Of a DNA stretch of 64,000 nucleotides, positions 1 to 64,000 are shown in pieces (position 1 is the first letter of the stretch; every line of letters starts with the position of its first letter). A program made the translations under genes and the position numbers. The DNA is from Botryllus schlosseri (taxonomy: Eukaryota): the NCBI GenBank assembly GCA_051294905.1, contig CM119372.1:34970001-35034000 (forward strand). The letters are read 5' to 3'. The notes under the pieces are model-generated. The model searched no databases, had not been told where the DNA came from, and was given only the letters and a program-made list of their open reading frames with translations.

Positions 1-212
1 TTGTCAATATTAAAATACAAGTCGTCAGACCCTTTTGTTTAAACTATCATTTTGTAAACTGGTCATGCTAATCAATGCATTTGTCAATATTAAAATAAAA
101 GTCGTCAGTCCTTTTGTTTAAAGTATCATTTTGTAAACTGGTCATGCTAATCAACGCATTTGTCAATATTAAAATACTAGTCATTAGATCCTTTTGTTTT
201 AAGTATCATTTC
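1..212 (+). repeat. ~80-bp tandem repeat in left arm of element A
   Basis: TTGTCAATATTAAAATA recurs at 1, 81 and 160; a mirror array lies at ~15563-15810. Confidence 0.9.
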
Positions 213-835
213 AAATTGTAGAAATAGATTTGTTGTTGTCTATGTCATTCATACAAAATTACATTTCTGCGAGACCGAGGCAAAGTATTTTTTATCTGAA
301 TAACGCAATTCATTCATATTCGACTTGTGGTCTTAAATCACATTCGACAATTCATCACGAATGCGTTGCAACGAAGTTACGAAAAAGTCGCACAGCAAAA
401 TTTTCGAAAACTGTGTTATTACTATTTCCATTTGTGAATCTACCTAACACAATCGTGTATCGATGTTTCCAAGTACACCGCAGCGTAATAAACTCGCTAG
501 AGTTGTCAATGTAAAATTACGTATGTGTTCAAATTTCGTAAGGAAATATTCTTGATTAGGAATAATTCTATTACTCACCTCTGTCTGTATTACAGAATGC
601 GATAATGTGCTTACCAGCTAAGATTTTACAAATCGGTCAGTTGTAATCGCCATGGTCAAATGTAAAGCAACAATATCGTTAATGTTGAATTTACAGACCA
701 ACGCGAAATATATTTTAATAATTTTCGTTGGCAAGTCGTTATTGATACATTTAACAATCGGTTCAATATTTTATTATTAGAATGTGTGGTGAGAATTGAA
801 ACACTTACGTGCATTTCCGGGTTTCAAGATATCAC

Positions 836-1350
836 CAGGGCTGGGCAAAATCGAATACCTGAGTGATTCGAGTCTGAATCACGTAATATGCTTCGAGTCG
901 AGTCGAGTAATCGAGTATCACCAATTATGACGTCATAACAGAATGTATTACGTCAAAGTTCAAATATGCACCGTTTTTGCCAATACAAAGAATATAATGC
1001 AGTTTATCCATCTCGTAAAAGATACTTTGGTATTTAATCGACCATACCAATTTCATTCTACTTGGTGGAAATGTTGTGGGATTATCATGACTTCGTAAAT
1101 GCGCTACGTCCAGAAACCTTCGTAGGTTTGTACTATGTTTTGTAAGTTACAATACCGCCAATCAAGGTTTCAAGGCTTCAACAGTGAAAATTATAATCGA
1201 AACTAGAATTCTCGTTGATAAATTAACTTTCAGTGGCGAGGAGCGTATAATTTCATTACTCGAAAAAATCGTCTTTTACTACTCGACTCGAATCATTCAA
1301 ATTAATACTCGATTCAGATTCGAGTACTCGAATCATTGTGCCCAGCCCTA
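836..1350. mobile_element. hAT-type MITE
   Basis: TIRs CAGGGCTGGGCA / TGCCCAGCCCTA; 8-bp TSD GATATCAC (828-835, 1351-1358); empty site in the opposite arm (GTGATATC at 14941-14948); subterminal TCGAGT/ACTCGA motifs. Confidence 0.92.
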
Positions 1351-4300
1351 GATATCACACTATGCGAATTGACATACCGCCGCTTGATTATAGCTTAATC
1401 CGTTCGCACCATTTCAGAAACACTTTGATCATCGCAAAATAAATTTCGAAAATGTTTGTTACCGTTATCTTAGTTGGATAGACTTGAGTTATTTGTAGAA
1501 CACGTACTATCAAAGAAATCAGAAACACAACCTACGTAGAAATATGGTAAATGTGTTTGTTCATTAGTACTATTGATATAACTTTCTCCATTTCCATTTT
1601 GGTAAAGTAATTTTCACCACAACACTTAATCACTAAAAGATCTTACTTGTATGTGGTTGAATTGTAGACAACATCAGTCCTGACTTAGCAGTACAAGACC
1701 CCGGAAGTATCACTGAGCTGTCAACATAGCGCACATATTTGAATATATCACTTAGTAGATTAAAGCTAAAGCATCGATAGTAACAACCGACGTGATTATT
1801 ACTATTATTTATTTCGTAATCATTTCAAAAAAATTACACACACTGTATAATACATTGGTTGTTGTTTCGTGACATGAGAATAATCGGACCTCAACAAACT
1901 CAAGGTGTATTTTAGTCACTCGTCGCATTATGGGCATTTTCCAACATCGGCTCCGTCGTATGGATAGTTTTTCTAGATACAAATTATATTAGTGTCGCAG
2001 AAAACAATTTGGTGTAACAGAAAATAATTTTCACACGCTTGAAATATGAAACGATTGCGTCAGTCTTCATTCAATATTTTATTTGTGACATATATTTTGA
2101 AAATTGCCCCATTCGAATGTTGATCGAGGTTTATCACATCAAGCTTTCGTCGGTGAATTAAGATTACATCAAACCTACGAATCTGTAACTGTGTCGTTCA
2201 ACTAACTGAGCTGTAATCACAATTCGCTACCGTTTTCGTTTAGTGATTGGTGAACATACCATACGACAAACAGTCAATTCCGAAGTATTGCGTTGTTCCT
2301 AATTTCTATCGTCAATAGAAGTACATTTGTTTCGAATTTGTAACAATCACCTTTTTTACGATACGAAGAATTTTGAAAAATCTATGTTTAGAAGAATCGT
2401 TCATTTCGGGGTGGTTAAACATTCAACTGTGGCGGATACTAATTGTCACACTCAACTGTTTTTATACCAAATAGTTATTTAGGTCACAGCATCCATGGTA
2501 CAGAAAAATGTATGTCTCTCTAAGTAATTGAGAATACTCTTTAACAAAATACTACAAAACCGTCTCTAGATTGGTTATAGAGCTATACTCTGCAGACCCT
2601 TTCTTCATTCGCGATTAACAACTATCTTGTTCATATAAATAATATGTTCACTGTCCCGATAAAATCAAATAAACACTCTGTATAAGACACACAAATCCTG
2701 TCTGACAAATCCTGACAATAATACTTCATGCTAACGACAAGTATCTCGCGCAACCTGATGAGTTGGAAACACCTTATACCAATTAAAGACCCCATGATTT
2801 TACAAAATTCAGTTTTCGTGATGTAAAAAATTTCCATGAGGAATATTTTAAAGCATGATTTTAGTGTGGCTAAATTAATACCGACAACCATGATATGCTC
2901 TCCTCATGAAAATGTGGTGTTTCAGGTTCAGCGCGACGTGTAACATTCGTGAAAATATCGTCCTGAAATTTCCATTTCGCACTCACATCGGTATTGAAAC
3001 ATTTTTTGACAAAACAAATGTTTTCTACCACGTTATCGCGGCGTGTTTCGTAACACAAAACCATAGTCACTGGTTGACGGATCTGTCAATGTAATCGCAA
3101 TCATCTTGTTTCCCCTAGATAACAGTAGATATGTATTCGACCCATGCCTCACAAATCTGACACACAGAAAAGGCTACTTTATTAAAGAAAAGTGGATGGT
3201 TATCGAATGATTGTACTCACATCAATACAACCAGAAGACAGTTGCTTTTGAAAAATAGATATTCGGTGTCCTTTACGCACTCGCGCTTAATCGTATAGTA
3301 TGTTGTATTAATCGAGCTGTTGAATAACGTGAAAGTGTTTCTTGAGCGTCAAAGTCTCTTAAAACATACATTAAAGCGTCACAGTCACAACCTAATTGAG
3401 AATACGCGTCTATTTTCTGTGTTTTATCACAAGCTATCACGATATTGACTATTAGATTTTCTTCACCAACCTCGAAGCATATGTGAAATCTATCATTTTC
3501 ATCGAACACACAACTCAACAAGAGTATTTACTAGTTGCAACCAATATTCTGATTTTGTTGTACATATAGTTAATAATTATTATATTATTGATAATATTAT
3601 AAAATAAATATCATCGAGATCTGTTTGTGATTTTAGTGTGTATTGCGTACCCAGGAGCCCCATAATAAAATTAAACCGAATTGACATAATGCATAAAGAG
3701 TTGAAAGGTTTCGATTCGATTTACGTGTGATATTCGGTGGGGTTTCAAAAAACGAGTCATGCAACGACATTTCCGAAAAAGTCCATCTCTTTTGCGTTGC
3801 TCGAGACCGAACATGTAATATACACATTGGCATTTGGATAACGATCTTGTTTCATCATATGTGTGATATGTTCAGTGTTCGCGCCCTCGCGATGATGCAA
3901 ATTAATACTGTGTATGAGACGTGCAAATCTTTCTCACTCCTGATAGTGCACTAACGGCAACCATAGTCGGTGTGAAGCGACAGCGTTGAGCAAGTCCCAT
4001 GATTGTGCTAACCTTCTGTAGAGTCACATATTGCATTTCCATAAGTATATTTCAAAATACGATTTTCGTTTGGCGATCATAATCTTGTAACCATAAACAA
4101 CGGACAATTCGGTATTTTCGCATTGATTGCTGTCAGTTTCAGATTAATTATCCAACGAACAGTCACAAACAATATACACCAAATCGATTTCAGTATATTT
4201 GTGTAACCGCGTAGGCTATTTACTTGTTCTAGGGATCATCGCATCAGAATTATCGGCTACCAGCATGCAATAACAATGTGATGTTGTACACCGACATAAT

Positions 4301-5860
4301 ATTTTAGAAATATGGCGAATAATACAGGTTTCGATACGTTAATTATGTACTTGTTCGGATTTGTGCTTTGAATTTATTTCCCAGCATCAATATGTCTGAA
4401 GTAACAATTTTGTTATCTGGTTGATACTTGGGTAACGGTAACGATCTTCGAAAATGGATGAATTCATGCTCACCATCGTGCTAGCAATTCGGGTTGTATG
4501 CTTGTGAGTTTTCTGGGTAGCACTATGCAGATTATAGGTACAAGTAAATGATGTTTTATTCGCTATTGTTCAACGCATATCGATCAAATCATTCAAAATC
4601 GGATAACCAATATGAGAAAGTTTGTAAATATATTCACTCTGAATCGATAAACCAGAACTAATGATCAATATTCAAAATAAACATGTTCATTCATAACCCG
4701 TGTTTGCTTCCATGAAAAATACCAATGCATATACCTTCAAACATATCAATTTCTTCACGTTTTTTTAGAAGTATTTGTGTAAATGAGGCGTATGACATTA
4801 CATGCAATGTGTCGTTGTACAAATATTGAGAAATAATGCAGGTTTTGATCCATAGGTAACATTATCATAGCCGTTAATTTTGATACCAGTGATTTGGTAC
4901 ACCTTATTACACTACATATTAGTTTTGACGATCTTCAATCTTGCAACGAGAGATCAATAAAATCGACTTTGTTCAACGGAAGAGTTGGAGATCCAACGCG
5001 CAAACACTCGTGTATTCGTCTTTCTACAAGGTTAATCGATCAACTATACCGTTGATGCTATCGATACAATGAACAGCACAAAAGCGATATATTCAAAGTT
5101 AAATATTGGAACCAGGAACAACAATGTACCCCGATTTACGTTGAATATTCACAACACCGATGAATCGATGAAGACTGTTGTTAACCCCCGTAAGAGAGCG
5201 CTGTCTCCTAATTTCACACATTAATATGTGTTGTCAAAAGTCTTGGTCTAGCTGACCAGGCCACATTCCGAAACAGAACATCACCACCACATATCTATTG
5301 ATCGACGTTGATTTCAGTTGATTGTATCTACAGAGATCATGGCAATACGTATTTGCGTTTATAGATTTCTCTTGCCTCACACGATAGCGCTGAAACACAG
5401 GCATGATGTCCCGGTGCAGATCCTCAAATCGAGAAAGTATACCTTGGTGTTATTTGATTTGGATTTCACGCCCGATGAGCCTACCATTCGAGCTGTGCAT
5501 TGGGATGGCAATTCTATCGTCGAAGTCAACGGTAGAGAGATGTATCGATTCATCGGTGTTGTGAATATTCAACGAAAATCGGCCTACATTGTTGTTCATG
5601 GTTCCCATGTTTAACTTTGAATATATCGCTTTTGTGCTGTTCATTGTATCAATAGCATCAACGGTATAGTTGAACGAATAACCATGTAGTAAGACGAATA
5701 CACGAGTGCTTGCGCGTTGGATCGCCAACTCTTCCGTTGAACAAAGTCGATTTTATAGATCTCTCGTTGCAAGATTGGAGATCGTCAAAATTAATTTGTA
5801 ATATAATAAGGTGTACGAAATCACTGGTATCAAAATTAACGGCTATGATAATGTTACCTA

Positions 5861-6036
5861 TGTTACGTGGGTTATTGTATGTATTATGATGATGCTTCCC
5901 TGTAAAGTAGCAAGGTATGACGTCATGCCTTACCCAACTGTGCATGACCGCATCACTCGTGCTTGACCGCTTTATCATATATATCATCTCTGGTTGATGG
6001 CACATGGAAGCCATAATAAATGTACAGCAAGAAACA
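5861..6036 (+). repeat. 5' LTR
   Basis: Identical to 11465-11640; contains AATAAA near its 3' end. Confidence 0.97.
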
Positions 6037-6048
6037 TGGTGTCAGAAG
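6037..6048 (+). promoter_or_regulatory. Primer-binding site (tRNA-Leu type)
   Basis: TGGTGTCAGAAG immediately after the 5' LTR, complementary to a tRNA-Leu 3' end (...CTTCTGACACCA). Confidence 0.8.
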
Positions 6049-9000
6049 ATAACTGAACTCGCGAGCTCTAAATCTGTCATTAGCTCGGCATAAAGATTTA
6101 TCATCTTATCTAACTATATGGATCTCAGATATGTGATACCCCATCCGGGTCCTTTAACTGTCTCTGGTGATTTGGCCACCAACTGGAAGAACTGGAAGCG
6201 CCATTATGAGAATTATGAAGTGGCTACAAAACTCAATAAAGAGGAACATTCCATTCGTATTGCGGCTCTCAGAGCGGCTCTTGGAGTAGCTGGGTGTGAT
6301 GTCTATGATGGCATTACTTTATCAGAAGATGACGCCAAGAGTTACCCAGTCGTATTGAAGAAAATGGAGGAGCGCTGTGTTGGGAAGATCAACATTATAT
6401 ACGAGAGGTACTGTTTTTTCAGTCGTAGTCAAGCTTCAAATGAATCATTCAACACATACTACGAACAGCTGCGAAGGCTGATAAAAACCTGTGATTTTAA
6501 AACCTTGGAGGATGAGCTTCTCAGAGACAAAATTGTGTGTGGCATATCCGATGTTGTGCTGAGAAGAAAACTCCTACAAGAGACAGGACTTACATTGGAC
6601 TCCTGTATTTCGAGCTGCAGATTGTTTGAGTCAACTGCTCTGCAAATGGAAAAAATGACTCTAACGTCAGATGACGTTGCAATTCATGCGATACAAAATA
6701 AGTACAAGCAAAGGAAATGGCCTCCTGCTGAAAGGGGCTCTAAAATGAATCGAGGATATGATGGTAGTACACCTCAATCGGAAGAGCTCCCCAAAATCTG
6801 CAAGTTTTGTAGAAAGGTGCATGTTTTTGGTCGGCGATATTGCCCGGCTAACGGCAAAACTTGTTCACGCTGTAACGGAAAAGACCATTTTGCCGTGGCA
6901 TGTCAGGCAACTGTGATGATGATATCAGCTGATCGCATTGAGTCGGATGAAGAAGAGGATGACGAAGTTCTTTCGTTTGAACATGTGAGTGCTACGGAGG
7001 AATCCTATGTTAAGAAAATATTTGCTCTGTTATACCTGGTTAACATGTATGTAAAATTCCAAATTGATTGTGGCGCAACCGTAAATGTTCTTTCATGGCG
7101 AGATTACTTGAATGTAGCTGGTGACACAAAAATGCTCAACTTGAAACCTACTTCTATGAGACTGGTTGTATATAATAAGGAAGTGATAAGGCCTCTCGGA
7201 ATAACAACGTTGGAAATCACCAATAAAAAGAATGGTGAAAACTACTTGCTAGAATTTGTAGTGGTTGAGAAGCCGAACACTTCCATCATTGGTTCCGCCG
7301 ATGCTCAAAGGATGAAACTAATTACGATCAATTTTGAAAACATAATGATCGAGGAACCTTCAGTACAAGCTCTTACTGCGAAGGATCCTGAATTCGCCAA
7401 TTTTGCTACACTGGAGTTTGATCAAATATGTGAACAATTTTCGGATGTTTTCAATGGTACGGGAAGGCTAGAGGGTAAACTTCATCTGGAAATTGATGAC
7501 AGCACTATCAATCCTGTACAGATGCCTGTTCGCAAAATACCCCTGGCACTTGAAGCACAAGTGAAGGAGAAAATTGATAGTTTGGTTGATGCTGACATAA
7601 TAGCTCCCGTGGATTGCCATACTCCCTGGATATCTAATCTGGTCACTGTAAAAAAGCAATCTGGAGATATCCGCTTGTGCCTGGATCCCCTGGCGCTGAA
7701 CAAAGCTCTAAAACGCAACAATTATCCAATGCCGACAGTTGATGATGTGTTACCATATATGCACAATGCCAAAGTATTTACACTGTGTGATGTAAAAAAT
7801 GGATTTTGGCATGTAGAACTTGATGATACTAGTAGTTATCTAACTACATTCGGTACTCCATATGGTCGGCACAGATGGCTCCGACTGCCTTTCGGAATCA
7901 GCCCAGCACCGGAGGAGTTCATGAGAAGACTGAAGATAGCGCTGGACGGCCTGGAAGGAATCACGCCCGTCGCGGATGACATCTTGATTTATGGTGTGGG
8001 CGATACTGTTGAAGAGGCGACTATGGACAATAAGAAAAAGTTCTTTGAACTGTTGAAACGCTGTCAACAAACTGGTATTAAACTGAATAAAGCGAAACTA
8101 CGCTATCTGCAGACTGAAGTGCCCTACTTAGGCCATACCATCTCAAAAGATGGTCTAAAACCCTCATCGAGCAAAATTGAAGGCATCATAAAAATGCCCC
8201 CTCCAACGGATAAGCAGGGCGTCCAGAGAATTTAGCGATGACAAATTTTCTGCAGCGTTTTGCCCCTAAGCTTTCAGATATAACCGCTCCCATCCGCGAA
8301 CTCCTAAAAAAAGACAACGCGTTCATATGGGATCCAATCCTACATGGGACATGCTTTGAGAAAATAAAACAAACCTTGATCAACGCGCCAGTTTTACAAT
8401 ACTTCGACAAAAACGCACCTATGGTACTGCAATGTGATGCCAGTTCAAAGGGGCTAGGATGCTGTGTATTGCAAAACTCTCACCCTGTTGCCTATGCTTC
8501 ACGGGCGTTGACAACAACGGAGTGCAACTATGCACAAATCGAAAAAGAATTGCTTGCTATTCTCTTTGCCATGGAAAAATTTGAGTTATATGTCTATGGC
8601 AGATTTGTAACAGTAGAAAGCGATCACAAACCTCTGGAAGTGATCACAAAGAAAAGTCTGGTTAATGCACCAAAACGGTTACAGCGCATGTTACTTCAGC
8701 TCCAAAAGTATGACTTCGAGGTAATATACAAGCCTGGATCACAATTATTTGTGGCGGATACGTTGAGTCGTGCGTACATTCCGAAGTCACCCAAAGACGC
8801 AGAAACTGCTGATGTGTTTGATATCTTTCAACAGATTGCACATATCGACATGTTGAATGATATACCGGTATCAAGCTCCACGCTCGGCATGGTCAGCCAA
8901 GCAACAATCTCTGATTCTGTCATGAACACGTTAATCTCTTTTATAAAACATGGGTGGCCGAATGAAGCCAAGCTGGTACCCCAATCAATTCGAAATTTCT

Positions 9001-9470
9001 ACTGTTTTAAAGAGGAGTTGACATTTCAGGATCAAATCGTTCTGAAGGGTGATCGTATTGTCATACCGTCGTCCATAAAAGGCACTATTCTCAAGCGACT
9101 TCATGCCAGTCATGTTGGAATTCAAGGTTGTGTACGCCGGGCTTGTGAATGTTTGTATTGGCCCAACATGGTTAACGATATTACGGACTTCGTATCAAGC
9201 TGTTCCACATGTGGCTTACACCAACCCAACCAACAGAAGGAAAGTCTGATTTCACATCCGGTACCAGGACGTCCTTGGCAAATAATCAGTAGCGATTTAT
9301 GTGAATCTGACGGACAACATTATTTGATTACAGTTGATCACTACTCGGATTATTTTGAGGTAGATCGACTAACCTCACAGACTTCTACAGCAGTTATTCG
9401 CCGCTTAAAATCACATATGGCACGTCATGGAATCTGCGAGAAATTGATTACTGACAATGGTCCATGCTAT

Positions 9471-10708
9471 CAGGGCTTTGGAGCCGGAGCCGGAGCCCGG
9501 AGCCGGAGCCCCGGAGCCGTGCATTTTTACCGGAGCTGGAGCCGGAGCTCTACATTATATTTAGCTGGAGCCGGAGCCGGAGCTGGAGCCCGTTATTTGA
9601 GGAGTAGCTCCGGCTCCGACCTATTTCATAAGATGCTATTATATATGCAACAACCACATCTGCTGATTTATCATAATTGAACACCAGGCCTGAATTTTAA
9701 TGCTGTGCACAGCAATGGCATGGAGTAAATTGCGTTCTAGTGCAACTATGATGTTGTCGACAATTGACAAGTATTCAGTATGAAGTCACAAGCCGGCACG
9801 GCGGCACCTATATGTCTTTGTTGCTACATCGGATGTTACTGACGGCTGACGGACTCTAGATTACTATTGATAACTAACTTATTAGTAGATTAGCAATCTA
9901 TATAGACCAGGAATGGTCAACCTTTTCGGCTAAAGGGGCACATGCAATTGACGGACGAGTGCGCGGCCCACGAGCCACGCCAAGCGGGTAAAATTTTCTA
10001 AGTTTATAAATTAACTAGGTGAGTATTGCGGGTCTATTGTATACCACCCGCTAGGCTCAGTTTGCAAGGACACGACTATTCGGCGTCTGGACACATCGAT
10101 ATCGAAGGTCTCCGATAACTTGCGACAATCATTTTGTGCTTACATTTCACCGTCGACGATTTTATGCGAGCGCAAACGCGAAAAGACTTTCTTCCTTAAT
10201 TGCGAATACAGTTAGACTCAATCGGGTAAATTAGGCGTTTTTTTCATTTTCAGCAGGGGGTAGGCTATACCAAGCAAGAAATCGTGTGACAATTAAACAC
10301 GCGAAGCGTGAAGAAAAATTTCGCTAATATTTTAGTTTATTGTAATGTACGACGATTTACTGAAAATGTGACTGGACCCTGGATCTGCCAATGCGTCGGA
10401 ACTGATATTTTAGTCATCAACATCTCAAGTGTCGCAGCCAGAATTGTAATTTTTGGTTGGCATTGCAAGTTCACAATCTGAGCAATTCATTTTCGAGAAT
10501 ATAATAGGACATTACATCGCGGGCCACGCAAAACCCTCTCGCGGGCCACATTTGCGGGCCAACCCTGATATAGACAGGACCATTCGATAATTTCAGAGCC
10601 GGAGCCGGAACTGGAGCCGGAGCAGTGATTATAATGCGGCTCCGGAGCTGGAGCCGGAGCTAATGTATGATAGAAGAGAGCTCCGGAGCCGGCTGCTCCA
10701 AAGCCCTG
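9471..10708. mobile_element. hAT-type MITE with GGAGCC subterminal repeats, inserted in the integrase
   Basis: TIRs CAGGGCTTTGGAGC / GCTCCAAAGCCCTG; TSD CATGCTAT (9463-9470, 10709-10716). Confidence 0.95.
9908..10568. mobile_element. hAT-Charlie-like MITE nested in 9471-10708
   Basis: CAGG...CCTG ends with degenerate TIRs; GCGGGCC subterminal motifs; TSD ATATAGAC (9900-9907, 10569-10576). Confidence 0.88.
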
Positions 10709-11453
10709 CATGCTATGCTGCTCATGACTTCGAGGCATTTGCAAAGGAATATGAGTTTGAACATGTGACCAGCTCTCCAGGACACAGCCAATCGAACGGA
10801 AAGGCGGAATCAGCTGTCAAAATCTTCAAATCGTTACTTCGTAAAGCGACAACTGACAAAAAAGACATAAATATTGTACTGTTGGATTGGAGGAACACTC
10901 CAGGCGAGACTGTTCCTGGCTCTCCAGCACAGAGGCTATTTGGAAGACGCACCAAGACCTTGTTACCAATAGCAACTAAACTGCTTGAGCCGAAAATTGT
11001 TTCTGATGTCATTCCATCGCTTATGGATCGGAAAAGAAAACAGGCAAAGTATTACAATCGTGGTGTAAAAGACCTCGCCCTGTTGAGTCCTGGTCAACAG
11101 GTTCGATTCAAAAGGACAGAAAATGGCTTGTGGCTCGAAGCGGTGGTGATTAAGCAACTGAATGATCGATCGTACATTGTTAAGGCGACAGATGGAACGA
11201 TCTACCGACGCAACAGAAAGTTTATTCGAACTACTGTAACTCGCCCGCATGTTGCATTTGACTTCGACGACATTTCGATTGCCAGACCAGCAGTAGTGAA
11301 CAGCGACACTAATGGGTCGTTATCTGGTTCCAGTAGCAGCAGACCAAGCCGTACAGTAATTCGACCAGCATACTGGCAAGACTATGTTACAACTTGATTC
11401 GTAATTTATATCGTTAATCGGTTCGCTTCGTTTTCTATTATTTTGTGATGTTT

Positions 11454-11464
11454 TGAGAAGGGGA
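11454..11464 (+). promoter_or_regulatory. Polypurine tract
   Basis: GAGAAGGGGA directly before the 3' LTR. Confidence 0.85.
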
Positions 11465-11640
11465 TGTTACGTGGGTTATTGTATGTATTATGATGATGCT
11501 TCCCTGTAAAGTAGCAAGGTATGACGTCATGCCTTACCCAACTGTGCATGACCGCATCACTCGTGCTTGACCGCTTTATCATATATATCATCTCTGGTTG
11601 ATGGCACATGGAAGCCATAATAAATGTACAGCAAGAAACA
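11465..11640 (+). repeat. 3' LTR
   Basis: Identical to 5861-6036. Confidence 0.97.
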
Positions 11641-11990
11641 ACCTATGGATCAAAACCTGCATTATTTCTCAATATTTGTACAACGACACATTGCATGTAA
11701 TGTCATACGCCTCATTTACACAAATACTTGGTATGGCTAAGAAAACGTGAGTAAATTGATATGTTTGAAGGTATATGCATTGGTATTTTTCATGGAAGCA
11801 AACACGGGTTATGAATGAACATGTTTATTTTGAATATTGATCTTTAGTTCTGGTTTATCGATTCAGAGTGAATATATTTACAAACTTTCTCATATTGGTT
11901 ATCCGATTTTGAATGATTGTGATCGATATGCGTTGAACAATAGTGAATAACACATCATATACTTGATACCTATAATCTGTATAGTGCTAC

Positions 11991-12528
11991 CATAGTGTCC
12001 TATATGGTGTCGACACAGGCAAATCTCACGCCTCAGTGAAATTGTATCACGTCACAATTTCCATTTGCCTACAGGCAATTTGACAGTCATTTTTGACCGA
12101 CTTGCCGAGCATTAAATTTGGTGGAACGGGTATCAATCGAAAGCTGACTCTCCACTGATTACGAAAATATAAGTTTTATTCCGCTCGTGTCCCTGGAACT
12201 CCCACAATCAGCCTCGAATTTTTCATTGTTATGGAGATTGGCATTGACACGCAACAATGCTGTCTGGCGAAATGAGAGAGTAGCTCAGGACGTAACAATG
12301 CTGTCTGGCGAAACGAGAGAGAAAAAGAGCCAGACACCATTGTTGATTATATTTTCGTAATCAGTGGAGAGTCAGCTTTCGATTGATACCCGTTTTACCA
12401 AATTTAATGCTCGGCAAGCCGGTCAAAAATGACCGTCAAATTGCCTGTAGCCGAATGGAAATTGTGACGTGATACAGTTTCACTGAGGCGTGAGATTTGC
12501 CTGTGTCGACACCATATAGGACACTATG
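11991..12528. mobile_element. Foldback MITE, probably P superfamily
   Basis: ~180-bp TIRs starting CATAGTGTCCTATATGGTG; 7-bp TSD GTGCTAC (11984-11990, 12529-12535); empty site GTAGCAC at 4517-4523 in the other arm. Confidence 0.9.
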
Positions 12529-13682
12529 GTGCTACCAGGAAAACTCACAAGCATACAACCCGAATTGCTAGCACGATGGTGAGCATGAATTCATCCATTT
12601 TCGAAGATCGTTACCGTTACCCAAGTATCAACCTGGTTACAAAATTGTTACTTCAGACATATTGATGCTGGAAAATAAATTCAAAGCACGAATCCGAACA
12701 AGTACATGATCCACGTATAGAAACGTGTATTATTCGCCATATTTCTAAAACATTATGTCGGTGTACAACATCACATTGTTATTGCTTGCTGGTGACCGAT
12801 AATTCTGATGCGATGCTCCCTAGAACAACTAATAGACTATGTGGTTACACAAATGTACTGAAATCGATTTGGTGTATATTTTTTGGGACTGTTCCTTGGA
12901 TAATTAATCTGAAACTGACAGCAATCAATGCCAAAATACCGAATTGTCGGTTGTGTATGGTTACAAGAATATGATCGCCAAATGAAAATCGTATTTTGAA
13001 ATATGCTTATGGAAATGCAATATGTGACTCTACAGAAGGTTAGCACAATCGTGGGACTTGTTCACCGCTGTCGCTTCACACCGACTATGGTTGCCGTTAG
13101 TGCACTATCAGAAGTGAGAAAGATTTGCACGTCTCATACACAGTATTGATTTGCATCATCGCGAGGGCGCGAACACTGAACATATCATACATATGATGAA
13201 ACAAGATCGTTATCCAAATGCGAATGTGTATATTACACGTTCGGTCTCGAGCAACGCAAAAGAGGTGGACATTTTCGGAAATGTCGTTGCATGACTCGTT
13301 TTTTGAAACCCCACCGAATATCGCACGTAAATCGAATCGAAACGTTTCAACTCTTTATGCATTATGTCAATTCTGTTTAATTTTATTATGGGGCTGCTGG
13401 GTAAGCAATACACACTAAAATCACAAACAGATCTCGATGATATTTATTTTATAATATTATCAATAATATAATAATTATTAGCTATATGTACAACAAAATC
13501 AGAATATTGGTAGTAACTAGTAAATACTCTTGTTGAGTTGTGTGTTCGATGAAAATGATAGATTGCACATATGCTTCGAGGTTGGTGGAGAAAATCTAAT
13601 AGTCAATATCGTGATAGCTTGTGATAGAACACAGAAAATAGACGCGTGGTTTCAATTAGGTTGTGACTGTGACGCTTTAATG

Positions 13683-14918
13683 CAGAGGTCTCAAACTCAA
13701 ATGTGCTCGAGGGCCAATTTCCTAGTTTTGATAACGCCGCGGGCCGCAGCATCAATAATAGGGATATTCAATGTATAATTTCCAAGTAGGCCTTATTTGA
13801 CGGGAGCTTGCAGACGGGCATTCCACTAACATCGTGAAAATGTAATTTACTATTGTATTACTCAGGCTTTACACGGAAAAAAATCACATTTTCAAATATT
13901 TTAGTAAAATTATTTTTATGCCGGGCATAATTTGTTAATATAATGAGTTATATAGACATCAGGCGAGAGGGTGCATCATGACATCGTCAAACTGTCGGTT
14001 TATAATATTGCAGCTAGTGGACCTTTGACGTGCCACAATTTTATGTAGAATATTTTGAAATCTACTGAAGATTGATCTGATATCAGAGCAGTTGAGCGGT
14101 GTAGGCTAATCCTGGTTTTTATATAGTTGTGATAAGTAGGCTACTGTTACTGTCAATGCCTAAGTCAAATTAAATCAGCGTTAGATCTTGCCTCCTCGTG
14201 CTTCCAATAAGATTTCTCGTAGGTAGCCCCTCTTCATTTAAAACACAATTTCTGATGGTACCTATATTAAAAGCAGAAGGCCCATTCCCATAAAATCTAG
14301 CATAGCGCGAATACCATATTCCAGTTGAATAAATTGGCCCCTGTAATATAAATGTTCAATCGCCGATGAATTGATTGGTGTTACAGTTGTGGAGCGTAAT
14401 ATACTACCTATACTGCTAGCCAGATACCCTACGCAACGCAGGCTACGACCTTTTGATATTACACAGGGGTGGGCAACATACGGCCCGCGGGTAGGGTACG
14501 GATACGGATACGGATACGGATACGGTAGTGAGCAAGATGCCACACAAAAGATACGCATGTTTGATGGATGGTGTACAATCGAATGATAAATTTTTATGAC
14601 CCCGTAAAATTCGAAAGCGACAATATTTGATTATTTTTGCGCTATTGAATTCATTTCATTAATTTTCGTCGAATAATTATGCAGTATTATCAATTCGTTT
14701 CATTAATTATCGTCGAATAATCATGCAGTATATCATGCATATGTATCGAATTCATGTGCGGAACACTTCTTATCTATGGATTTGTACCTTGGTCATCATG
14801 ATTACTTGGCAACGGCAAATTTTTCCAGCAATTTACTAATCTAGTGTTTTTTCGCCAATCTAGTGTTTTTTCACGACATAATCTTGTGTTTTTCCTGGAA
14901 ACTAGAGTGGCAACACTG
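13683..14918. mobile_element. Mosaic of hAT fragments replacing ~2 kb of the right arm of element A
   Basis: Begins CAGAGGTCTCAAACT, has an internal CAGGGGTGGGCAAC end (~14464) and a (GGATAC)n run, and ends GTGGCAACACTG. Left-arm 1381-3368 has no counterpart here. Confidence 0.7.
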
Positions 14919-15562
14919 GCGGTATGTCAATTCGCATAGTGTGATATCTTAAAATCCGGAAATGCACGTAAGTGTTTCAATTCTCACCACACACTCTAAC
15001 AATAAAATATTGAACCGATTGTTAAATGTATCAATAACGACTCGCCAACGAAAATTATTAAAATATGTTTTGTGTTGGTCTGTAAATTCAACATTAACGA
15101 TATTGTTGCTTTACATTTGACCATGGCTATTACAACTGACCGATTTGTAAAATCTTAGCTGGTAAGCACATTATAGCATTCTATAATACAGACAGTGGTG
15201 AGTAATAGAAGAATTCCTAATCAAGAATATTTCATTACGAAATTCGAACACATACGTAATTTTCCATTGACAACTCTAGCGAGTTTAATACGCTGCGGTG
15301 TACTTGGAAACATCGATTCACGATTGTGTTAGGTAGATTCACAAATGGAGATGGTAATAACACACTGTTTTCAAAAATTTTGCTGTGCAACTTTCTCGTA
15401 ACTTCGTTACAACGCATTCGTGATGAATTGTCGAATGTGATTCAAGACCACAAGTCGAAGATGAATGATTTGCTTTATTCAGATTAGAAATACTTTGCCT
15501 CGGTCTCGCAGAAATGTAATTTTGTATGAATGACATAGACAACAACAAATCTATTTCTACAA

Positions 15563-15810
15563 TTTGAAATGATACTTTAAACAAAAGAGTCTGATGACTT
15601 GTATTTTAATATTGACAAATGCGTTGATTTGCATGTTCAGTTTACAAAATGATACTTTAAACAAAAGGGCCTGACGACTTGTATTTTGATATTGACAAAT
15701 ATATTGATTAGCATGACCAGTTTACAAAATGATACTTTAAACAAAAGGGTCTGACGACTTGTATTTTAATATTGACAAATGCATTGATTAGTATGACCAG
15801 TTTACAAAAT
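15563..15810 (-). repeat. ~80-bp tandem repeat, mirror of 1-212
   Basis: Three units of AAATGATACTTTAAACAAAAG...ATTGACAAAT. Confidence 0.9.
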
Positions 15811-17410
15811 CACGATAAGGTTTTTATTGTATGTGTGTTATCATCAAACAAATGTGTGATTTGATTCAAATCTTACGATTAGACGTTATTTTTCGCGGTT
15901 GGAATAAAACGAAAGTTCGTTGAAATAGCATACTTACGAGTTCAATATTATTCTCTATCGACGAATGCGAATAATCCAACAGTTACAAGCAGAATTTAAA
16001 AATTGATGCTGTTTTGTGGTTAACTCAAGTCAGGTTTGCGTTGATTTCAAGAATGATCATGACGAGTTAGCCGAATAAATTAGGTAATGTGGTAATAACT
16101 ATACCCGTAAGAGTTGCTGACATTCCGATATTTTTTACACTGTGATATACCTATTCACTTGCGATAAATTAATTCTCTTCTGCGATTGACCGGGTAATCA
16201 AATCTTGTGTACTCGAAACATAATATGTTTATGTCAAGTCGTAAAATAAAAAAGACCGGTCATATGAATACAACCAGGATGAATTATTCAAGTTTACAAG
16301 TTGTAGTGATATAATCGAGTAAGTCAAAATCGGATTTGTGACTTGTAAATGTTGTTTGTGAATAAGTCCTTTGAGTGTGGTAAGATATTAAAACGTCGGG
16401 ATGTACTAGCACTTTCATTTCCCTAAACTCAGTTGCAACAAAAAATAATTATAGACCAATGATAAAGTTGTAAGTTTCGACGTTCTGTTTCAAATCATTG
16501 TGTGAATAATCCGACAAACACGCCATATAAACATTCTTAATATTATTGATATAAGACATTACCATGTTTACAGACTTTGAATACTATTATCCTGATGTCA
16601 AGGCGGTAAATTAACATATTTGGATACAATTCAGCTTCACTTGTGTAGTGAGTTTGGTCGCGAAAAACATTAACTCACAAAGGATTAGAGTTGAAACATA
16701 AAGCACCATGTTGTTGGTGTTCGAATCTTGATGTCAAGGTGACAAATTTACGCGTTCCGATACGATTCAACTTCGGTTGTGCAGTGAGTGAGAGATCGCT
16801 ATGTCTGAAGCATTATCCTGTGAGCGACCGTAGGATTTTACAATTATTTCACACCTTTTTTGAATAAGCGTAAACTTCGCAAAGGATTAGGGTTAGAGCA
16901 GAAATAAGTGATATTTTCCTGTCGCTGCTGAATACTGAAAACTGAATACTGCTGAATGTAATAGCACTGACCGGACTAGTGTAATACTCGATACCATATT
17001 ACGATAAGTTCAGTATACTGTAGCGACACAAAACATCCAACCAGCTGTTTTCACGGGAAACAATTCAGGATGTGAGCGGACAGGATACCAGAGTCATTTG
17101 TCGCACGGAATATAGGTCGAGCGCGATCAAACATCTGTTTCAAAATCCGCTTGCGATGAAATGCACAACGCGCCGCGTTTCTGAATTTCCTGTGTTGGCT
17201 TATTTATTATATTTTGCGGAACGATATAGGACGCTTTTAGGGTATCCCACAGGTCAAAATGCAGCTTTTCTGATTTCCGATAGGCCGATTCTAGACCACC
17301 AGGCAGCTCAAAATGCAGCGTTTGTGACTTCCGAAATGCAGCTTTTCTGATTTCCGGTGTATTTGTTTATTTATTATATTAGCATATCACCACATGGTAC
17401 TTACGCTACT

Positions 17411-35229: not shown

Positions 35230-35321
35230 ATGTATATACAGGATGTATATAAGGATTGTAAGCGTTTTTGTAAGTCGTTTTAACTACATCGACAACCTAA
35301 TAATTTATGGCACTATTTCAG

Positions 35322-49726: not shown

Positions 49727-51829
49727 ATGTGCACTATCGTCGGTGGTTTGATTTAGTGCGTCCGCATGCAGGCCTGCTACCGTCGGCAGAAGCACTTTCG
49801 CCAAATAGTAACAATCTCCGAGTGTAATATTGTTTGTGTCTATGTAACTATTTGATGAAAACTTATGCCCGCGTCTGAAAAAATTGTGCTCGTTGCCATT
49901 GCCGAATCTGGGTATTTAGGTATGACTAGCGCATCCTGTAATTATAATTATTGCAGGTTTGCGGCATGTCGGTAATTTCGTTATCAGCGCAACCTCTGCG
50001 GCCGATTGTACAGCCCAATGAAATTGATCACTAGGCTACTATGTATTTCGCACAGCGTACTGATGCTGATTTCAGCAAACTATCGATCCATATTAGATGG
50101 GTAAATTCGACCTCATCGTTAGAAACGGTCGCGCGCTCTGGGTAACACCATCTCCTATCGCGATTTGACGACGAAATATACGTTCACCTTTTACAAATTA
50201 AAGTGCATTATTTACATCGATGAGGGCCGCAAGCCGCGTTTAAAATATTTTGTGAACCATTTTTGTGATAAATATTCTTGGAGCGTGACGTTGAACAGTG
50301 TTGTATTGTGAGTGCCCGCTAGTTGGAATTTACTGAAGTTCCCATAATGATAATCCTATTATGCTTTGCGAACGTATATAGGGAAATGCAGCAATGCAGT
50401 CGAAATCGATGTTTCAATCAGCAACCAATTGTCGCGATGCGAGCTACTCAATACTAAGTAAAAACTCATTGTGTTGGCGGTAAGGGATAATTACTTATTG
50501 GCGTTTGTAATATCATTCTTGTCTTTCTTTCGTGTTCCAGATTTGTCACGCCGTGTTACTGCTTAGTCCAGCGACGAATGCCAATCGCGCCCCCCGCGAT
50601 GACCTAATTTCGTAGTACAGCGGGAGATCGCGTCGCGTTGAATTGTGCGACATCCGTGCACAGACGAATCTCGCTAATTGGTCGCGGCCCCGCGCAAAAC
50701 TGACAATACGAGTTGTTGAATTGCATTACAACTGAAGATTAGCACCAGAATGGTCATTTCAAAATGACGAGGTTTTGCGTTTCAAAAGGAGGGGGTTTCG
50801 ACACCCTTCTTGCTACGCGCCTGCCGCCACCCCATGCAAAAATAAAAGTCGACGCCTATGACTATATATACTTGTATTTGAGAGCTACAATATTAAATCG
50901 TCATAATATTTCTTCATCGTATCATAAAGGATGATACTATCTAGTGTTACGGTTCACAACCTCACATGAACGTTACATAATATATGCTTAGTTTGGAATA
51001 CATTCATGTTAAAAATTAATAACTGGGTACAGTACTAAATTCAATGTGAGCAGATACATGCATCCCAATCTCAGTTGACTTACTCATTGTTACACAAACA
51101 CTAGGACAAAATCAAATACCATTAACTTCGCCGTATTGCCAGTCGCAGATATGAATTCAGGATGGCTCGAACCACAGAGTATGAGACCGTACCCGATTGT
51201 TGGTATAACAACCTTGATTTGACCCTGGATATACCACACACAATTATTGTATGATTTATTATAGTCTAATGGTCCTTGAGCGCGATTAAAGCGCGAAATA
51301 TTTCCAATACCAAAGTCTCGAAAAGACTGACTGCATTTTGACCTCTTACGAGGACCAATACTGCTGCAACCCAAACCCCAATCGGTGAGCTCGAAGGGTG
51401 CCCTAAATTATTTCGCTGAATGAACGTAAATTACACATGTTTTGACGACTCCCATCAGAAGAATACTCATAATTATAGAAAATAGAAATAGGCATTTCGG
51501 CGTCTGCCATCACCGCGCCACGATGCACGAAGACATATGGAGTTACGGTCAATATGGGACTCCGAGAAGTGTGTGAAAAAGATCGTCAGCGAGAAGACCT
51601 TAGCCGAAGAGGATTGCCCTTATGTTGACCGTAAACTTCGATGTATAAAAGTGTAATTGTCTATTGGTACTTAAGTCGCTCGTGCCGAATTACCATGTCG
51701 TCACAATCTGCACCCCACGGGACGAATAACATCCTTCAGAGAAAATTATATGCCAGTGCAGAAGTACTAATTTTGAATCGTGTGCTTACATTAGTTTAAT
51801 GCGTTAGTAGTTATTATAATCGCTCGTGG

Positions 51830-52110
51830 TGTGGCAGGGGTTCTTATGGGCCCGCTCGCATGCGGCTTCGAAAACTCGTGTTCGCACGGTAACCCTTTTG
51901 ACCCCCCTATCACTCGCACGCGGCTATTGCGTCTTATGGGCCCTCTCGCACGGTAACCCTTTACGGTATAGGAATCGCTTGCACGCGGCTTCGAAAGCCC
52001 GTGTTCGCGCGACCACCTTTCCCCTATCGCTCGCATTCGGCTATTGTGTCTTGAGGTCGCATGGTAAGCTTTCCAGGTATAGCACCCGCTCACACGCGGC
52101 TTCGTTGTAG
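51830..52110. repeat. GC-rich subterminal tandem repeat of element B (mirror at ~63265-63545)
   Basis: Repeated GCGGCTTCGAAAA..GTGTTCGC, GGTAACCCTTT and CCCCTATC.CTCGCA..CGGCTATTG. Confidence 0.85.
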
Positions 52111-53641
52111 GTATGTCGAACTTCGTATGGTGTTGAATATGTATGAAGTAGATTGATCACGTGATTTATCCTTAATGTTTATATTCCGAATTATTATATA
52201 TGACCGATTCGATTTAATCCTAACGTTTACGGTGATTGTGACATAATCTATCGTTATTCTTATGGGCGCGGCGGTGATTCGTACTTTCGGGTATAGGCTG
52301 CGGGCGGTATGTCATACTTTCAACAAAAATAGTGTGAAATAGTTTGCTAAATCTAGGAATCAGTCGCTTGGTGATATTTTGGTAATTAGTTTGCCACAGA
52401 GCCGGCGTAGACGGCGATTCGAATATCAACAATAACCACGCTCACAAAGTAACACTTCAAATAGGTGTGAAATATATTACAAACCCCGCGATCGCCGACA
52501 TGATAATGTCTCATACGTAGCCATCTTTCGTGACTTGGTGTTACAGGCATGCAGATCGCTCAGGCGGTGAAATTTTAGTAATCAGTTTGTCACAGAACTT
52601 GATTTCGCTGGTAAGATTTAATAAGTAACGAATAACAGAACCGTCGCAGACAGTGATTCGAATACCGACAAATTCTCACTTATTTCTGCTCTAACCCTAA
52701 TCCTTTGCGAAGTTAACTCTTATTCAAAAAGGTGTGAAATAATTTTTAAATCCTACGACCTCTCACATGGCAATGCTTCAGACATAGCGATCCCTCATGA
52801 TTTGGTGTTACAGACATACCGATCGCTCACAAGGTAATATTTCGATAATTAGTTTGGAACAGAGCCGTCGCAGACGGTGATTCAAAAACCAACAATTTGA
52901 CACATTCTGGTGGTCGCTATATGTTTTCACATCCTTGGAATAGTGGTCGAATTTAGTTGTGTGATAAGAATCATGAGAATATTCAATCAATGTGTTAATT
53001 TGTCAACTTGAAATGAAATTTACTACACAACTCAAGTTGATTCGTATCTTAATATGTTAATTCGGTAAAACTCTAATCATTTGAGAAATCCTTTTAACGC
53101 GATCTGTTGAATCGAACGTAACCTGAATATTACTGACGCCGACTTTCAGCCGCATCGGATTATTCACACATTCCGCGCCGCTGTTTTCACACCTATAGAA
53201 TCAATACCAACTAAGGGTGGAGGCCAATAAGCTGAGTAAAAACATCCTGGATTTTCGCTTAATCAGCGAGTTCCAAGATCTCCCGATTTAGAAGTAGATG
53301 ATCCGCACGCCAAAACATTGGATGTTCGTGCGAAGTTAGTTGATCTACAAATCCAGGATGTAGGACGCTTTTGCGTCAAAATGACGCAAATTGTAGTGAT
53401 CCGTGGAAGGTTGCCATGTCAACCCATCGACTTCGTAGTAAATATTGCTTTGGCAATGCTGATTGGAAATGTCGTCGATTTTGGTCGTGTCCTATGAATG
53501 CCGTCGTTTCCTAGGTGGACTCATGAAATTGACTTGAAGCCACTTTGCAGCTTTAATGCATATTACTCTGTAGTTTATTCACAGTTATAAGTTCTAAAGA
53601 CGGCATTGCAAACTGGTACTGTTGTTATTACTGTCTGTAGT

Positions 53642-54659
53642 ATGGATATTTTGGACATCGTAGATGGCAGTTCCAGTTCGGATGACGAGAATACAATTAT
53701 TGTGCCCAGGCATTACTTGGCAGACATATCGGACTCATTTGTAAAATAACCGGAAAAAGAATTCGTTGACCGCTACAGATTTTCCAAGGGAGCTACGGTA
53801 ATTCTATTGGACATGATTGAAGACAGCCCATGGTTGGATGTACGGTGCCAAGCTTTGCACCCCATGATGCAATTACTCTGTGCTCTCCGATTTTTTGCTA
53901 CGTTCATTTTTAACAAACAGATGCTGACTTGATTGGTGTAAGCCGGATAACTGCACGCCGAATCATCCACTGCATTTCTCGGGTATTATCAGAGAACAGA
54001 GAAAATTTATCCCACAATTGGATGATTCGTTACAAACAAAGAGTGATTTCTTTGACATAGGTGGAGTTCCAAATGTCATCGGTTGCATTGATGGTACCCA
54101 TATCCTAATAAAGTCCCCAGGTGGCTCTGTACCAGAAAAGTTTATCGTTGCAGGAAAGGATATTTTTCTTTGAACTGTCAAATGGAGTACAATGCCAAGA
54201 GAATACCGGTAGTGACTAATGCTGTTGTGAGATGGCAGGGAGTACTCATGACTCAAGAACTTTTTCAAACTCCAGATTAATATACGAGCTCGGCCAGAAA
54301 AAATACAATGGGATTTTGCTGGGAGACAGAGGCTATATGCTCTAAAAATGTACCTGATGACTCCATTAACAAATCCACAGGCTGCACAAGAAAAAAAATA
54401 CAGCTATATGCAATCAAAGACACGCGTGCTGATCGAGCAATGCTTTGGCATTCTCAAACACTGTTTCCAGATGTTGCTAATTCCTATGCGAATGCAAACC
54501 GAAAACACCACCCCGGCAATCATTGCGACAATATGTTTGCACAATTTTGCTACAAAAACCAATGAGCCAGTTCCTGATATTGCAGTTACTCCCGAGGAAG
54601 CTACGGATATAACATCTGAAGTTGGATACACTGACGCAATAGCCTATCTTGGAAAATAA
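53642..54659 (+). pseudogene. Harbinger (HARBI1-like) DDE transposase, degenerate
   Basis: EFVDRYRFSK, QLLCALRFFAT, VIGCIDGTHI, RKGYFSLNCQ, GSTHDSR, LLGDRGY, YLMTP and TRVLIEQCFGILK across frameshifts. Confidence 0.9.
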
Positions 54660-54991
54660 GATCAACACATATTTCTACTAATTATGTTTATTTTAAAATT
54701 TTAACGAACACAGTAAACCGTGTTGGTGTAAAAATAATAAAGGGAATGAAATGTGCATGACTTCGTGGAATGAAAGATTGAACTACAATTGCACTGTAGA
54801 TAATAAACAAAGAGCAGGTGTCCCATTATTTGTATTCAAATTGACAAATATTCATTGAAAAAATGTACCGAAATATTTGCACCGTCGACAATACCTATAA
54901 GGCGAGGAACACTTGGGCAGGCAGGCACAATGAAATATTATAAAGACGTGTTGCATTTCAAAAAATGTGCACCATCGATAATACCTATAAG

Positions 54992-55188
54992 CAATGTTCC
55001 CTCTAAGCTACTCACGTGCGTAAATGCGCAGCGCTGACATGGTCTCTGCGCACAGAAAATCCCAAGTTGCGCACGAAAAAATTCGAAGTGATGAATTTTT
55101 TTACAGACGTTTACGCACTGTTGTCCAAGAGTCTGCGTAGTGAGTTGCTGAGTGTGCGCAAACTCGTCGAAAATTAGAGGGAACATTG
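54992..55188. mobile_element. Short CAATGTTCCCTCTA MITE nested in the Harbinger
   Basis: TIRs present; TSD CCTATAAG / CCCATAAG (7/8). Confidence 0.85.
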
Positions 55189-55342
55189 CCCATAAGGCTA
55201 GAACCAGTTGGCAGGCAGGCACAATGAAATATTATGAAGAAACGTTGCTTTTCAGAAAATGCGTATTCGGCTATTTACATAACTTGACAGGAAGGCACAA
55301 TGAAATAAGTGAACAAAGAAATATTGCATTACAGATGTCACT

Positions 55343-57280
55343 AATTCCTCAATTGTCCAAGTTGTAATCTATATATTTCCATTTTTATCGCATGTTCTTC
55401 GATACGCATTTCGAATTCTTGCTTTCTGAAATATCTTTCTTCGTCTCTCATGTCTTTTCTTTCTTTGAGCTCCTCAATCTTGGAGACCATCAGTTCAATT
55501 CTCAGCTCATCGTTATTCTGAATTAAAAGAAGTTCATATTAACTCTGCGATGAGGTAGTAACCTATGATTAAACTAAAACTTGTATTAGGAAGCCAATCA
55601 CAGAGAAATCTTGGAAATTCTTCTTGCCTTGTTGGCTGATATTTTTTCCTCTAATGGTTGATATCAATACTCGGTCAGTCTCTAGTCATTAAAAACTTGT
55701 ATTCTGCAACCAGCTGATCACAAAGTGCAGAATTGGTAGTTGTCATTGTATTGTATTTGTATACTAGAGCCCGACTGATATTGTAGTTTTGGGCCGATAC
55801 CGACAAAACCAATATCTAACTCCTTCACCGATAACCACTATAGCCTATATTCAAATTGTGTGGAATAGCTTAAAATGCGCATTTGAAAAACTTCAGGGCA
55901 TCTATTTGAACAGCTTTACAGCCAATGCTATACTTGGAAATAAACCAGAAAGGCTGCATCAGGACACCTGTAAAGTGTAATATATGTGAAATATATCAAT
56001 ATTCTCAGTCTAGTGGTCAAAGATTATAGTTTATGGATTTCCTATCACCATGCTGTGACCTCACGAAAACTGCCCATATATATTCATTTCCAATTGCCGA
56101 TACCAATAATTCTTTTAAAGAGTGATATCGAGTCTATATTATCGGCAAACCGATATAATCGGTCAGGCTGCATTGTATACCATCTTATATCAATTGTTAC
56201 AGGATTGTAACTATGTGCATTGCACTGGTAATCAGCAATCTTTCGAACAGTCAAACACCATTTCCAACTCTGTCGTTCGCAGATACACTTCACTAGAAAA
56301 CTAAGTACAAAGTGGGAAATTTTTACATAACAATGGTTGAGGCAGTGGAGCAAAAGTTTGCCAAACTCTCCGAAACTGCGAGATTGTATATTTTAAAATA
56401 TCAACTCGACTTGAAATTCAAATGTGTATAAGCAACATACCAGGTGGCAGATCACTCATCTTTGTCACGCATGTTGACTGCGATTCCATGTAGCTTGTTT
56501 CTGAAAAAAATGTGAATGTTTCAGAAGGATTTGAGGCTATACGTATGTTTACACATGCACAATGCACAATTGCACATGCATATTTGCTAGTGATGGTGGA
56601 AAATACTGAAACTGATCATTTGACGAGTAGCAAAAAATCTCAATATAAAATCGCTGAATGCATGACAAGAACGTTTGATATCGTGAATGCATTCCCTTCA
56701 ATACACCACCGGGCAAGAATTCGATATAATATACATCTACACTCGTACAATTGATATGTTAGCAAAAAGTAGTGATGAAAATAACGAGAAGAGTTGCCTC
56801 TGACACGAACCAATCATCATCATGGGGAACACTTCTCGATGTGGTCAATGTATCGATCAAGTTCTCATTACTCTCTCGCAATATAACTTACATATGATTG
56901 ATTTTCTACAGTAACTACAGACAATACGGTGGAATCACTTTGTGTTGTTCAAGTGGCTGAACCTGTGCTGGTATGACAGCTATAACCAATAATTTACTCA
57001 AATGCGCCATATTATGGATATAATTAATGTCTACAAAGTTACCTTGAAATAAATAGCACCGTCACCGGGTCAGATACCATATCTTAAGTCACTCTTCCAA
57101 TGAAATGTTCTGAAAGACTTGTCATTTTCAGTTTTGTCACTTTTTCTTGTTTTGAAACAACCTTCAATTGCTGTTCTGTTCCTTTGCCATGTTTGGTGAT
57201 GTAGCATTTCACGGCTTGGTTGATTGTTTGCAATGCAAGAGAACGGCTAAACTCATTTATTACATAGTTTGTATGCAATT
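55343..57280 (-). pseudogene. Probable second Harbinger gene (Myb/SANT-like), degenerate and spliced
   Basis: Minus strand has a charged coiled-coil C-terminus (RDEERYFRKQEFEMRIEEHAIKMEIYRLQL, ~55343-55520) and GTEQQLK near 57170; convergent two-gene layout is typical of Harbingers. Confidence 0.45.
55765..56172. mobile_element. hAT MITE with CCGATA repeats nested in the Harbinger
   Basis: TAGAGCCCGACTGATAT...ATCGGTCAGGCTGCA; TSD TTGTATAC (55757-55764, 56173-56180). Confidence 0.8.
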
Positions 57281-63200: not shown

Positions 63201-64000
63201 AGGATCAATCACGTGATCAATCTACTTGATACATATTCAACACCATACGAAGTTCGACATACCAACAACGAAGCCGCGTGGGAGCGGGTGCTATACCTGA
63301 AAGGGTTACCATGCGACCTCAAGACACAATAGCCGCATGCGAGCGATAGGGGGTCGAAAAAGGTGGTCCTTCGAACACGGGTTTTCGAAGCCACGTGCAA
63401 GCGATTCCTATACCGAAAAGGGTTACCGTGCGAGAGGGCCCATAAGACGCAATAGCCGCGTGCGAGTGATAGGGGGGTCAAAAGGGTTACCGTGCGAACA
63501 CGAGTTTTCGAAGCCGCGTGCGAGCGGGCCCATAAGAACCCCTGCCACACCACGAGCGATTATAATAACTACTTACGTTTATGCGTTTCACTATCTTTTG
63601 ACTATATAGCGGACAAGAGGTAACAAATTAACAACATGTAACGAATTTATTGTACCGACGGGCACGCCCGAATATGTTTGATTAATAATTACGCGGCCTT
63701 CATTTTCATATACAACAGCTCCCTCAGCGCTACTGGTAAATCTGATTACGTGAGTTGAGAGGATAAAAAGTTTATAGCGTCGTATATATGCAAATACCAG
63801 CGATTCATTCATGCATTATAGAAAATGTTGGCGCCTAGGGCGACCAGGTCACACAAACTTTGCTCACAATCGATATCACGGTCAGCGTTCTTGAGGGCGA
63901 AGCCCTCAGAAGTTTGATTTATCACGCTATCGGTGCGCAAGACAATCGTACTTCAGGGGGGCTGACGAAGTGCTATTACGGTCCTCCCTCTTACCCATTG

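Follow-up and report, generated by a model that had tools for sequence, protein, structure and literature searches.

How a mobile element could come to be a mirror image of itself is the question raised by the 64,000-nucleotide stretch of Botryllus schlosseri DNA analyzed here (the window). The first 17,410 positions hold a palindrome, element A, and a second element, B, lies at 51806..63573; a preliminary description made from the sequence had proposed that A is a snap-back derivative within the family of B, with one end and part of the core copied back on itself. We find that A is an old, decayed palindromic mobile element, riddled with insertions and related to B. It is, in our judgment, fairly probable that A represents a decayed copy, some 13 kb in its original length, of a multi-copy family of likely helper-dependent Maverick/Polinton satellites that stems from an ancestral copy-back event.

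Comparison of A with itself reveals five inverted pairs that flank a unique loop of 374 bp (5170..5543), namely 1-835 with 14941-15778 (94.3% identity), 1350-1381 with 14918-14949, 3369-4526 with 12526-13682 (95.1%), 4516-4857 with 11641-11991 (95.2%) and 4851-5169 with 5544-5862 (93.7%). The arms differ at 128 of 2,666 aligned bases (0-6.4% per segment), so that the 374-bp spacer and the inverted arms are borne out, but the earlier estimate of arms of at least 5.2 kb was too generous for what pairs today. The left arm (1..5169, plus strand) is predicted, from the mirroring of positions 1 and 15778, to extend beyond the window by about 1.6 kb on the upstream side, and the left end of A should lie there, outside the sequence analyzed. 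The right arm (5544..17410, minus strand) is interrupted by insertions and retains about 4.3 kb of native sequence; with the part that it has lost, the mirror of left-arm segment 1382..3368 (plus strand, homologous to the core of B), this arm amounts to about 6.3 kb, from which the original length of about 13 kb follows by arithmetic. An 80-bp tandem repeat in three copies (15567..15810) is mirrored at 1-211, and one related unit is present in B (58554-58607). The GC content of the loop is 0.44, compared to a maximum of 0.42 among 89 arm windows, and a search of the loop for residual inverted similarity found none. Beside the loop, a frame of 68 codons without an ATG is open in both arms (4849-5055, plus strand; 5658-5862, minus strand) and has no match in a Pfam search.

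The likely right terminus of A is the hexamer GCTACT at 17405..17410 (plus strand), identical to ACTACT in five of six positions and the sole near-match to the Maverick end motif at the compositional break of the element, where the AT-skew shifts from −0.16 to +0.34. The last 100 bp of A do not align with the end of B (46% of shuffles score equally high). To the right of A, the segment 17411-19300 is A-rich and contains decayed coding-like sequence without a Pfam match, which we take, from its motifs, to resemble a non-LTR retrotransposon.

Nested transposons occupy more than 8 kb of positions 1-17410. A MITE found only in the left arm (836..1350, 8-bp TSD GATATCAC) is presumably of the hAT type, to judge from TSD length and end motif; its family is extremely abundant in contigs and RNA reads (summed contig depth 10^4-10^6; in run X23, both strands are represented among the RNA reads). 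The right arm harbors a Gypsy-type LTR retrotransposon (5861..11640, plus strand, TSD ACCTA) with 176-bp LTRs that are 100% identical and with reverse transcriptase, RNase H and integrase zinc-binding domains. Despite the identity of the LTRs, its integrase is disrupted by another hAT-type MITE (9471..10708, 8-bp TSD CATGCTAT), such that three generations of insertions are nested. A palindromic MITE follows at 11991..12528 (7-bp TSD GTGCTAC), and a second one, 78-83% similar to it, lies at 24898-25486. The expected mirror site of 1382-3368 is occupied by a block (13684..14919) with what we assume to be hAT-like end motifs; it lacks a TSD, in contrast to all the other insertions in A, and about 2 kb of the right arm have been replaced by this hAT-like DNA. 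Farther along the window, we observed a DNA transposon-like element (32519-35237) whose TIRs measure 194 bp (89%) and whose coding region is broken (32880-34517), as well as a host frame of 534 codons (35231-36835); a NACHT domain (PF05729) is present in the two homologs of this frame. No Rfam matches were detected in the window.

The polarity of the palindrome can be read from a conserved gene of 91 codons (5339..5614, plus strand) that crosses one of its two borders. The ATG of this gene is located in the loop, whereas the stop, 71 bp into the arm, and the 23 codons before it belong to the right arm and are mirrored in the left arm at 5099..5170 (minus strand). A search of 1.84 billion proteins returned two matches, of which P0003 (91 amino acids) is 66% identical to the loop gene product (E = 2.5e-35) and P0004 was rejected as a tandem-repeat artefact. 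A second search, in which two of three candidates matched, added P0007 (90 amino acids, 60%). The starts and stops of all three sequences coincide, with a single gap. Both homologs were retrieved from assemblies of Logan and ENA as sequences devoid of genomic context, so that their location in palindromes is conjectural. The substitutions in the loop gene are conservative: the observed mean BLOSUM score was reached in 5 and 1 of 3000 neutral simulations, and none of 3000 both kept the frame open and reached that score. Identity to the two homologs is 43/68 and 39/68 in the loop part and 17/23 and 16/23 in the arm part. No usable match for the loop gene was obtained from PHROGs, the sequences of the PDB or the ESM Atlas, Pfam scans of the small open reading frames, including this one, yielded nothing, a weak search found no longer relatives, and neither the gene nor the TIR motif turned up in contigs of viral or metagenome origin. 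The predicted fold is a poor model (pLDDT 42.9). Because the gene spans the border between the loop and the right arm, and the left arm mirrors only its 3′ part, the loop and the right arm appear to form a continuous template. Judging from this arrangement of the sequence, the most likely position of the copying junction is 5169/5170, and the gene would identify the left arm as the copy, in keeping with what copy-back predicts.

The affiliation of the two elements is indicated by the ends of B, which starts with AGTAGT (51806), terminates with ACTACT (63568-63573) and is flanked by the TSD TGCGTT/TACGTT (identical in 5 of 6 positions). Its TIRs of about 2.2 kb show 3.2-3.3% mismatches and enclose a single-copy core (58442-61374) homologous to the arm of A; the left TIR carries a PIF/Harbinger-type insertion (53215..57628; TSD TAA; DDE_Tnp_4, E = 4.6e-7). 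The core holds an old direct duplication (71%; 59541-59643 and 60035-60137). According to PMC8097293, Mavericks are characterized by (AGT)2//(ACT)2 termini and a 6-bp TSD; termini of the type (AG)3//(CT)3 also count as Maverick ends. Measured against autonomous Mavericks/Polintons (PMC8097293, PMC6431247), B has the same ends and an imperfect TSD (5/6) of the same length, and A has one near-match to such an end (5/6); both likewise possess TIRs (about 2.2 kb in B, the arms in A) and fall in the size range of 10-20 kb. The elements differ from these autonomous forms in that the scanned parts of A and B contain no gene for pPolB, integrase, ATPase, protease or capsid, the inverted repeat makes up about 97% of the inferred native length of A, and one small, unrelated-looking gene occupies the center of A. 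In six-frame translations with stops read through as X, Pfam yielded nothing below E = 0.08 for A 1381-5543, A 15811-17410 and B 58442-61374; the scan took in a single open reading frame of A 1-1380 and, of B, the part between the TIRs. There is no long native open reading frame. Thus, the link of A to Mavericks rests on the ends of B, and A, by its gene content, does not appear to be an autonomous Maverick and looks helper-dependent.

The same observations bear on the view that a cut-and-paste transposon (FB, Galileo or Mutator-like), unrelated to Mavericks, gave rise to A and B as foldback-type derivatives. The long TIRs with internal repeats and the lack of any Maverick gene in the scanned parts would fit such an origin, but B has (AGT)2//(ACT)2 ends with a 6-bp TSD, FB, Galileo and Mutator elements make TSDs of 7-9 bp, and the scanned native parts contain no transposase remnant. 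We consider this origin improbable.

Comparison of A with B shows that the two belong together. The match that the preliminary description had placed at 343-530 and 58687-58875 was recovered as 349-520 with 58693-58871 (72.8%), the one at 1961-2010 and 59564-59614 as 1958-2010 with 59562-59614 (84.9%), and the one at 2400-2510 and 59865-59975 as 2400-2507 with 59865-59969 (76.4%). A weak block described near A 3050 exists as well, but it pairs A 3052 with B 60521, about 150 bp away from the position near 60370 given for it. The TIR blocks reported at A 16245-16395 and 16793-16910 were found again as 16245-16397 with 61640-61791 (82.7%) and 16789-16917 with 62576-62703 (89.9%). The latter is the best-conserved block and is likely to be cis-acting. 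A telomere-like TTAGGGTTAG motif is present inside it in both elements (16880-16912 and 62666-62698), and further diverged repeats of this block occur in B (52456-52596 and 52723-52863). Additional blocks pair 1580-1662 with 59399-59482, 3034-3640 with 60502-61082, 3825-3993 with 61168-61319 and, across the border between the TIR and the core of B, 15756-16397 with 58607-57999. Significance and co-linearity, on which the earlier proposal had staked its case, were both observed: the main blocks score 55-162 bits compared to a best score of 34 bits in 20 shuffles, and the six left-arm blocks are in co-linear order in a test that left out two weaker off-diagonal matches (1964-2125 with 60062-60199 and 2617-2724 with 61180-61280), which reflect internal repeats. 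The similarity is non-coding, with tblastx pieces that mostly carry stops and no prominent frame. Sequence of the B core does lie in the arms of A, as had been stated, but the blocks at 1961, 2400 and 3052-3237 are in the left arm only. The mirrored DNA also proved, as the proposal presupposed, to be element sequence rather than host genes, since it is homologous to B, an element with ends and a TSD of its own.

The kinship is distant. Identity between A and B is 60-76% over most core blocks (60-90% overall), whereas the arms within each element differ by 3-5%, so that A and B represent separate lineages. No counterpart of A 4000-5543 was found in B (scores of 47 and 43 compared to 40-58 for shuffles), and the 91-codon gene, when sought there, was absent. 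With this segment and the gene lacking from B, and a core that is 25-40% different, A did not derive from a B-like parent, and that part of the preliminary description has to be abandoned. Instead, B is likely to be a palindrome that has lost the loop and the inner right arm, and not the parental type of A. We read B as a product of loss because its core is non-coding, of the arm type and C-rich up to the junction, and because A itself shows a one-sided loss of 2 kb. The C-richness, which persists beyond the midpoint of the core and is arm-like, is a weak signal; a search of the ends of the B core for residual inverted similarity found none, and no microhomology is visible at the B junction. 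It is also possible that B is a member of a separate short-TIR family.

To assess how widespread this sequence is, contigs of three runs and the raw reads of one RNA run (4 of 24 runs) were mapped on 212-5600. All 30 bins of this region are covered by contigs of both X1 and X5, many divergent contigs extend over the arm and the loop in both runs, and the summed depth is in the hundreds, compared to 9-20 (X1) and mostly 31-92 (X5) per single listed contig. Although depth is no copy number, these values suggest that A belongs to a repeated family. The ratio of arm to loop depth, to which the same restriction applies, is about 2-3 in X5 and about 1-1.7 in X1; at single sites in X5, depth is 216 in the loop and 485 in the arm, a weak indication. 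Among the rows listed, no contig or joint bridges 5169/5170. In the RNA run, of which about 6% was read, depth is below 2 on the arms and the loop as opposed to 43-139 on the MITE. In addition, record 22 of X8, which bears the label of another organism, matches A 3377-4282 and 4814-5166; it contains a gap that is present in neither arm of A, and its match ends where the arm meets the loop, 43 letters short of the end of the record.

Some of these data would equally suit a one-off origin, in which A is a de novo snap-back of a non-palindromic member with a short TIR and a longer core, the layout of B being ancestral. The polarity of the gene is what copy-back predicts under this scenario too, identical arms at insertion would also fit, and both the depth ratio near 1 in X1 and the X8 record, ending at 5166 with further letters beyond, agree with a single arm plus loop. 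However, B lacks 1.5 kb of A together with the gene, so that the parent cannot have been B-like, and in X5 the depth of the loop falls below that of the arm, if weakly. We regard a one-off origin as unlikely.

The differences between the arms can be polarized by the contigs. Of the variant sites, 40 are listed and another 591 lie outside the listing; among the 40, 17 fall in the paired part, and at 13 of these the right arm has the letter of the contigs; of the remaining four, two have a private letter common to both arms and at two all differ. The differences are thus mostly private to one arm, which implies that the arms were alike at insertion and then drifted, and suggests little sign of later homogenization in A. 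With 5% divergence and insertions confined to one arm or the other, the arms look like two haplotypes from a polymorphic animal, as would be expected if the palindrome were an inverted duplication of the chromosome or a mis-join of haplotypes centered in an old repeat, in which two alleles or copies meet head to head; furthermore, the upstream flank lies beyond the window and the left junction is unbridged among the rows listed. Nevertheless, the mirrored DNA all belongs to the element, its unpaired outer part (15811-17410) matches the TIR of B and ends at a Maverick-like motif, and the TIRs of B diverge to a similar extent (3%) within one TSD-flanked element. Such a duplication or mis-join is accordingly highly improbable.

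Several known systems resemble A, as a copy-back satellite, in part. Kapitonov and Jurka (2006) reportedly described non-autonomous Polinton derivatives that have internal deletions and ordinary TIRs and require a helper. These combine Maverick ends with the absence of replication genes, as observed here, and B looks like them; A differs in that its palindrome spans the whole element and holds a conserved gene. Palindromic hairpin and inverted-dimer derivatives with a short unique center also arise from a protein-primed replicon, the yeast linear plasmid pGKL1. Such a palindrome is similar to A but is an extrachromosomal laboratory product that is not known to integrate. Asymmetric snapback genomes of AAV (PMC8235507) are by-products, heterogeneous in form, of a parent that is known, and replicate only with helper functions; end joining is proposed as their origin. 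As proposed for A, an end and a partial genome are copied back, around a loop that is single-stranded in AAV (PMC8235507), whereas A is integrated, has non-coding arms and appears to be repeated in the genome. By the standard of snapback genomes, A presents an end and adjacent sequence in inverted duplication around a loop; its sole parent candidate, B, lacks A 4000-5543 and is not a co-linear, full-length parent. What persists of the earlier snap-back proposal is, then, the shared family, the head-to-head shape and the polarity of the gene, but not a short-TIR parent of the B type. We found no whole-element palindromic Maverick in the literature searched, which excluded Repbase and subscription journals: the portion consulted of PMC4028283 contains nothing on palindromes, PMC12448946 concerns chromosomal palindromes with multiple genes, distinct from A, and large inverted repeats have 0 occurrences in a Botryllus genome paper.

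Taken as a whole, the proposed history would run as follows. An ancestral copy-back would have turned round at 5169/5170, so that one end and about 6.3 kb were copied onto the other side. Template switching may have brought this about, and the turnaround point may vary among members of the family. The protein-primed polymerase of a helper might then replicate the palindromes from their Maverick-type ends, and the helper integrase might insert them; the replication of Mavericks/Polintons has itself been deduced largely by analogy with adenovirus and linear plasmids. Folding of the displaced strand into a long hairpin could keep the arms identical, such that A would have been inserted with identical arms that drifted afterwards. 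Integrated palindromes may subsequently lose one side, as proposed on the basis of the 2-kb loss in the right arm of A, and B would be a likely product of such loss. A broader generalization is tentative and, we believe, somewhat doubtful: A could exemplify a class of snap-back Maverick satellites that have turned into stable, self-propagating genome parasites and possess their own gene, maintained by selection, in which repeated copy-back shifts the border between arm and loop, in A into the 23 final codons of the gene, and one-sided loss gives rise to TIR elements of ordinary appearance like B.

Strand displacement followed by fold-back would be expected to yield just such an element, palindromic throughout and with Maverick-type ends. 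The A copy itself is old and broken; a gene that lies across one junction tells the template arm from the copy, so that mapping the turnaround across copies provides a direct test. The pair of A and B further cautions that such elements may owe the length of their TIRs to later loss and not to their origin. If the broader generalization above holds, snap-back satellites would be fossil evidence of strand displacement and hairpin intermediates in the replication of Mavericks.
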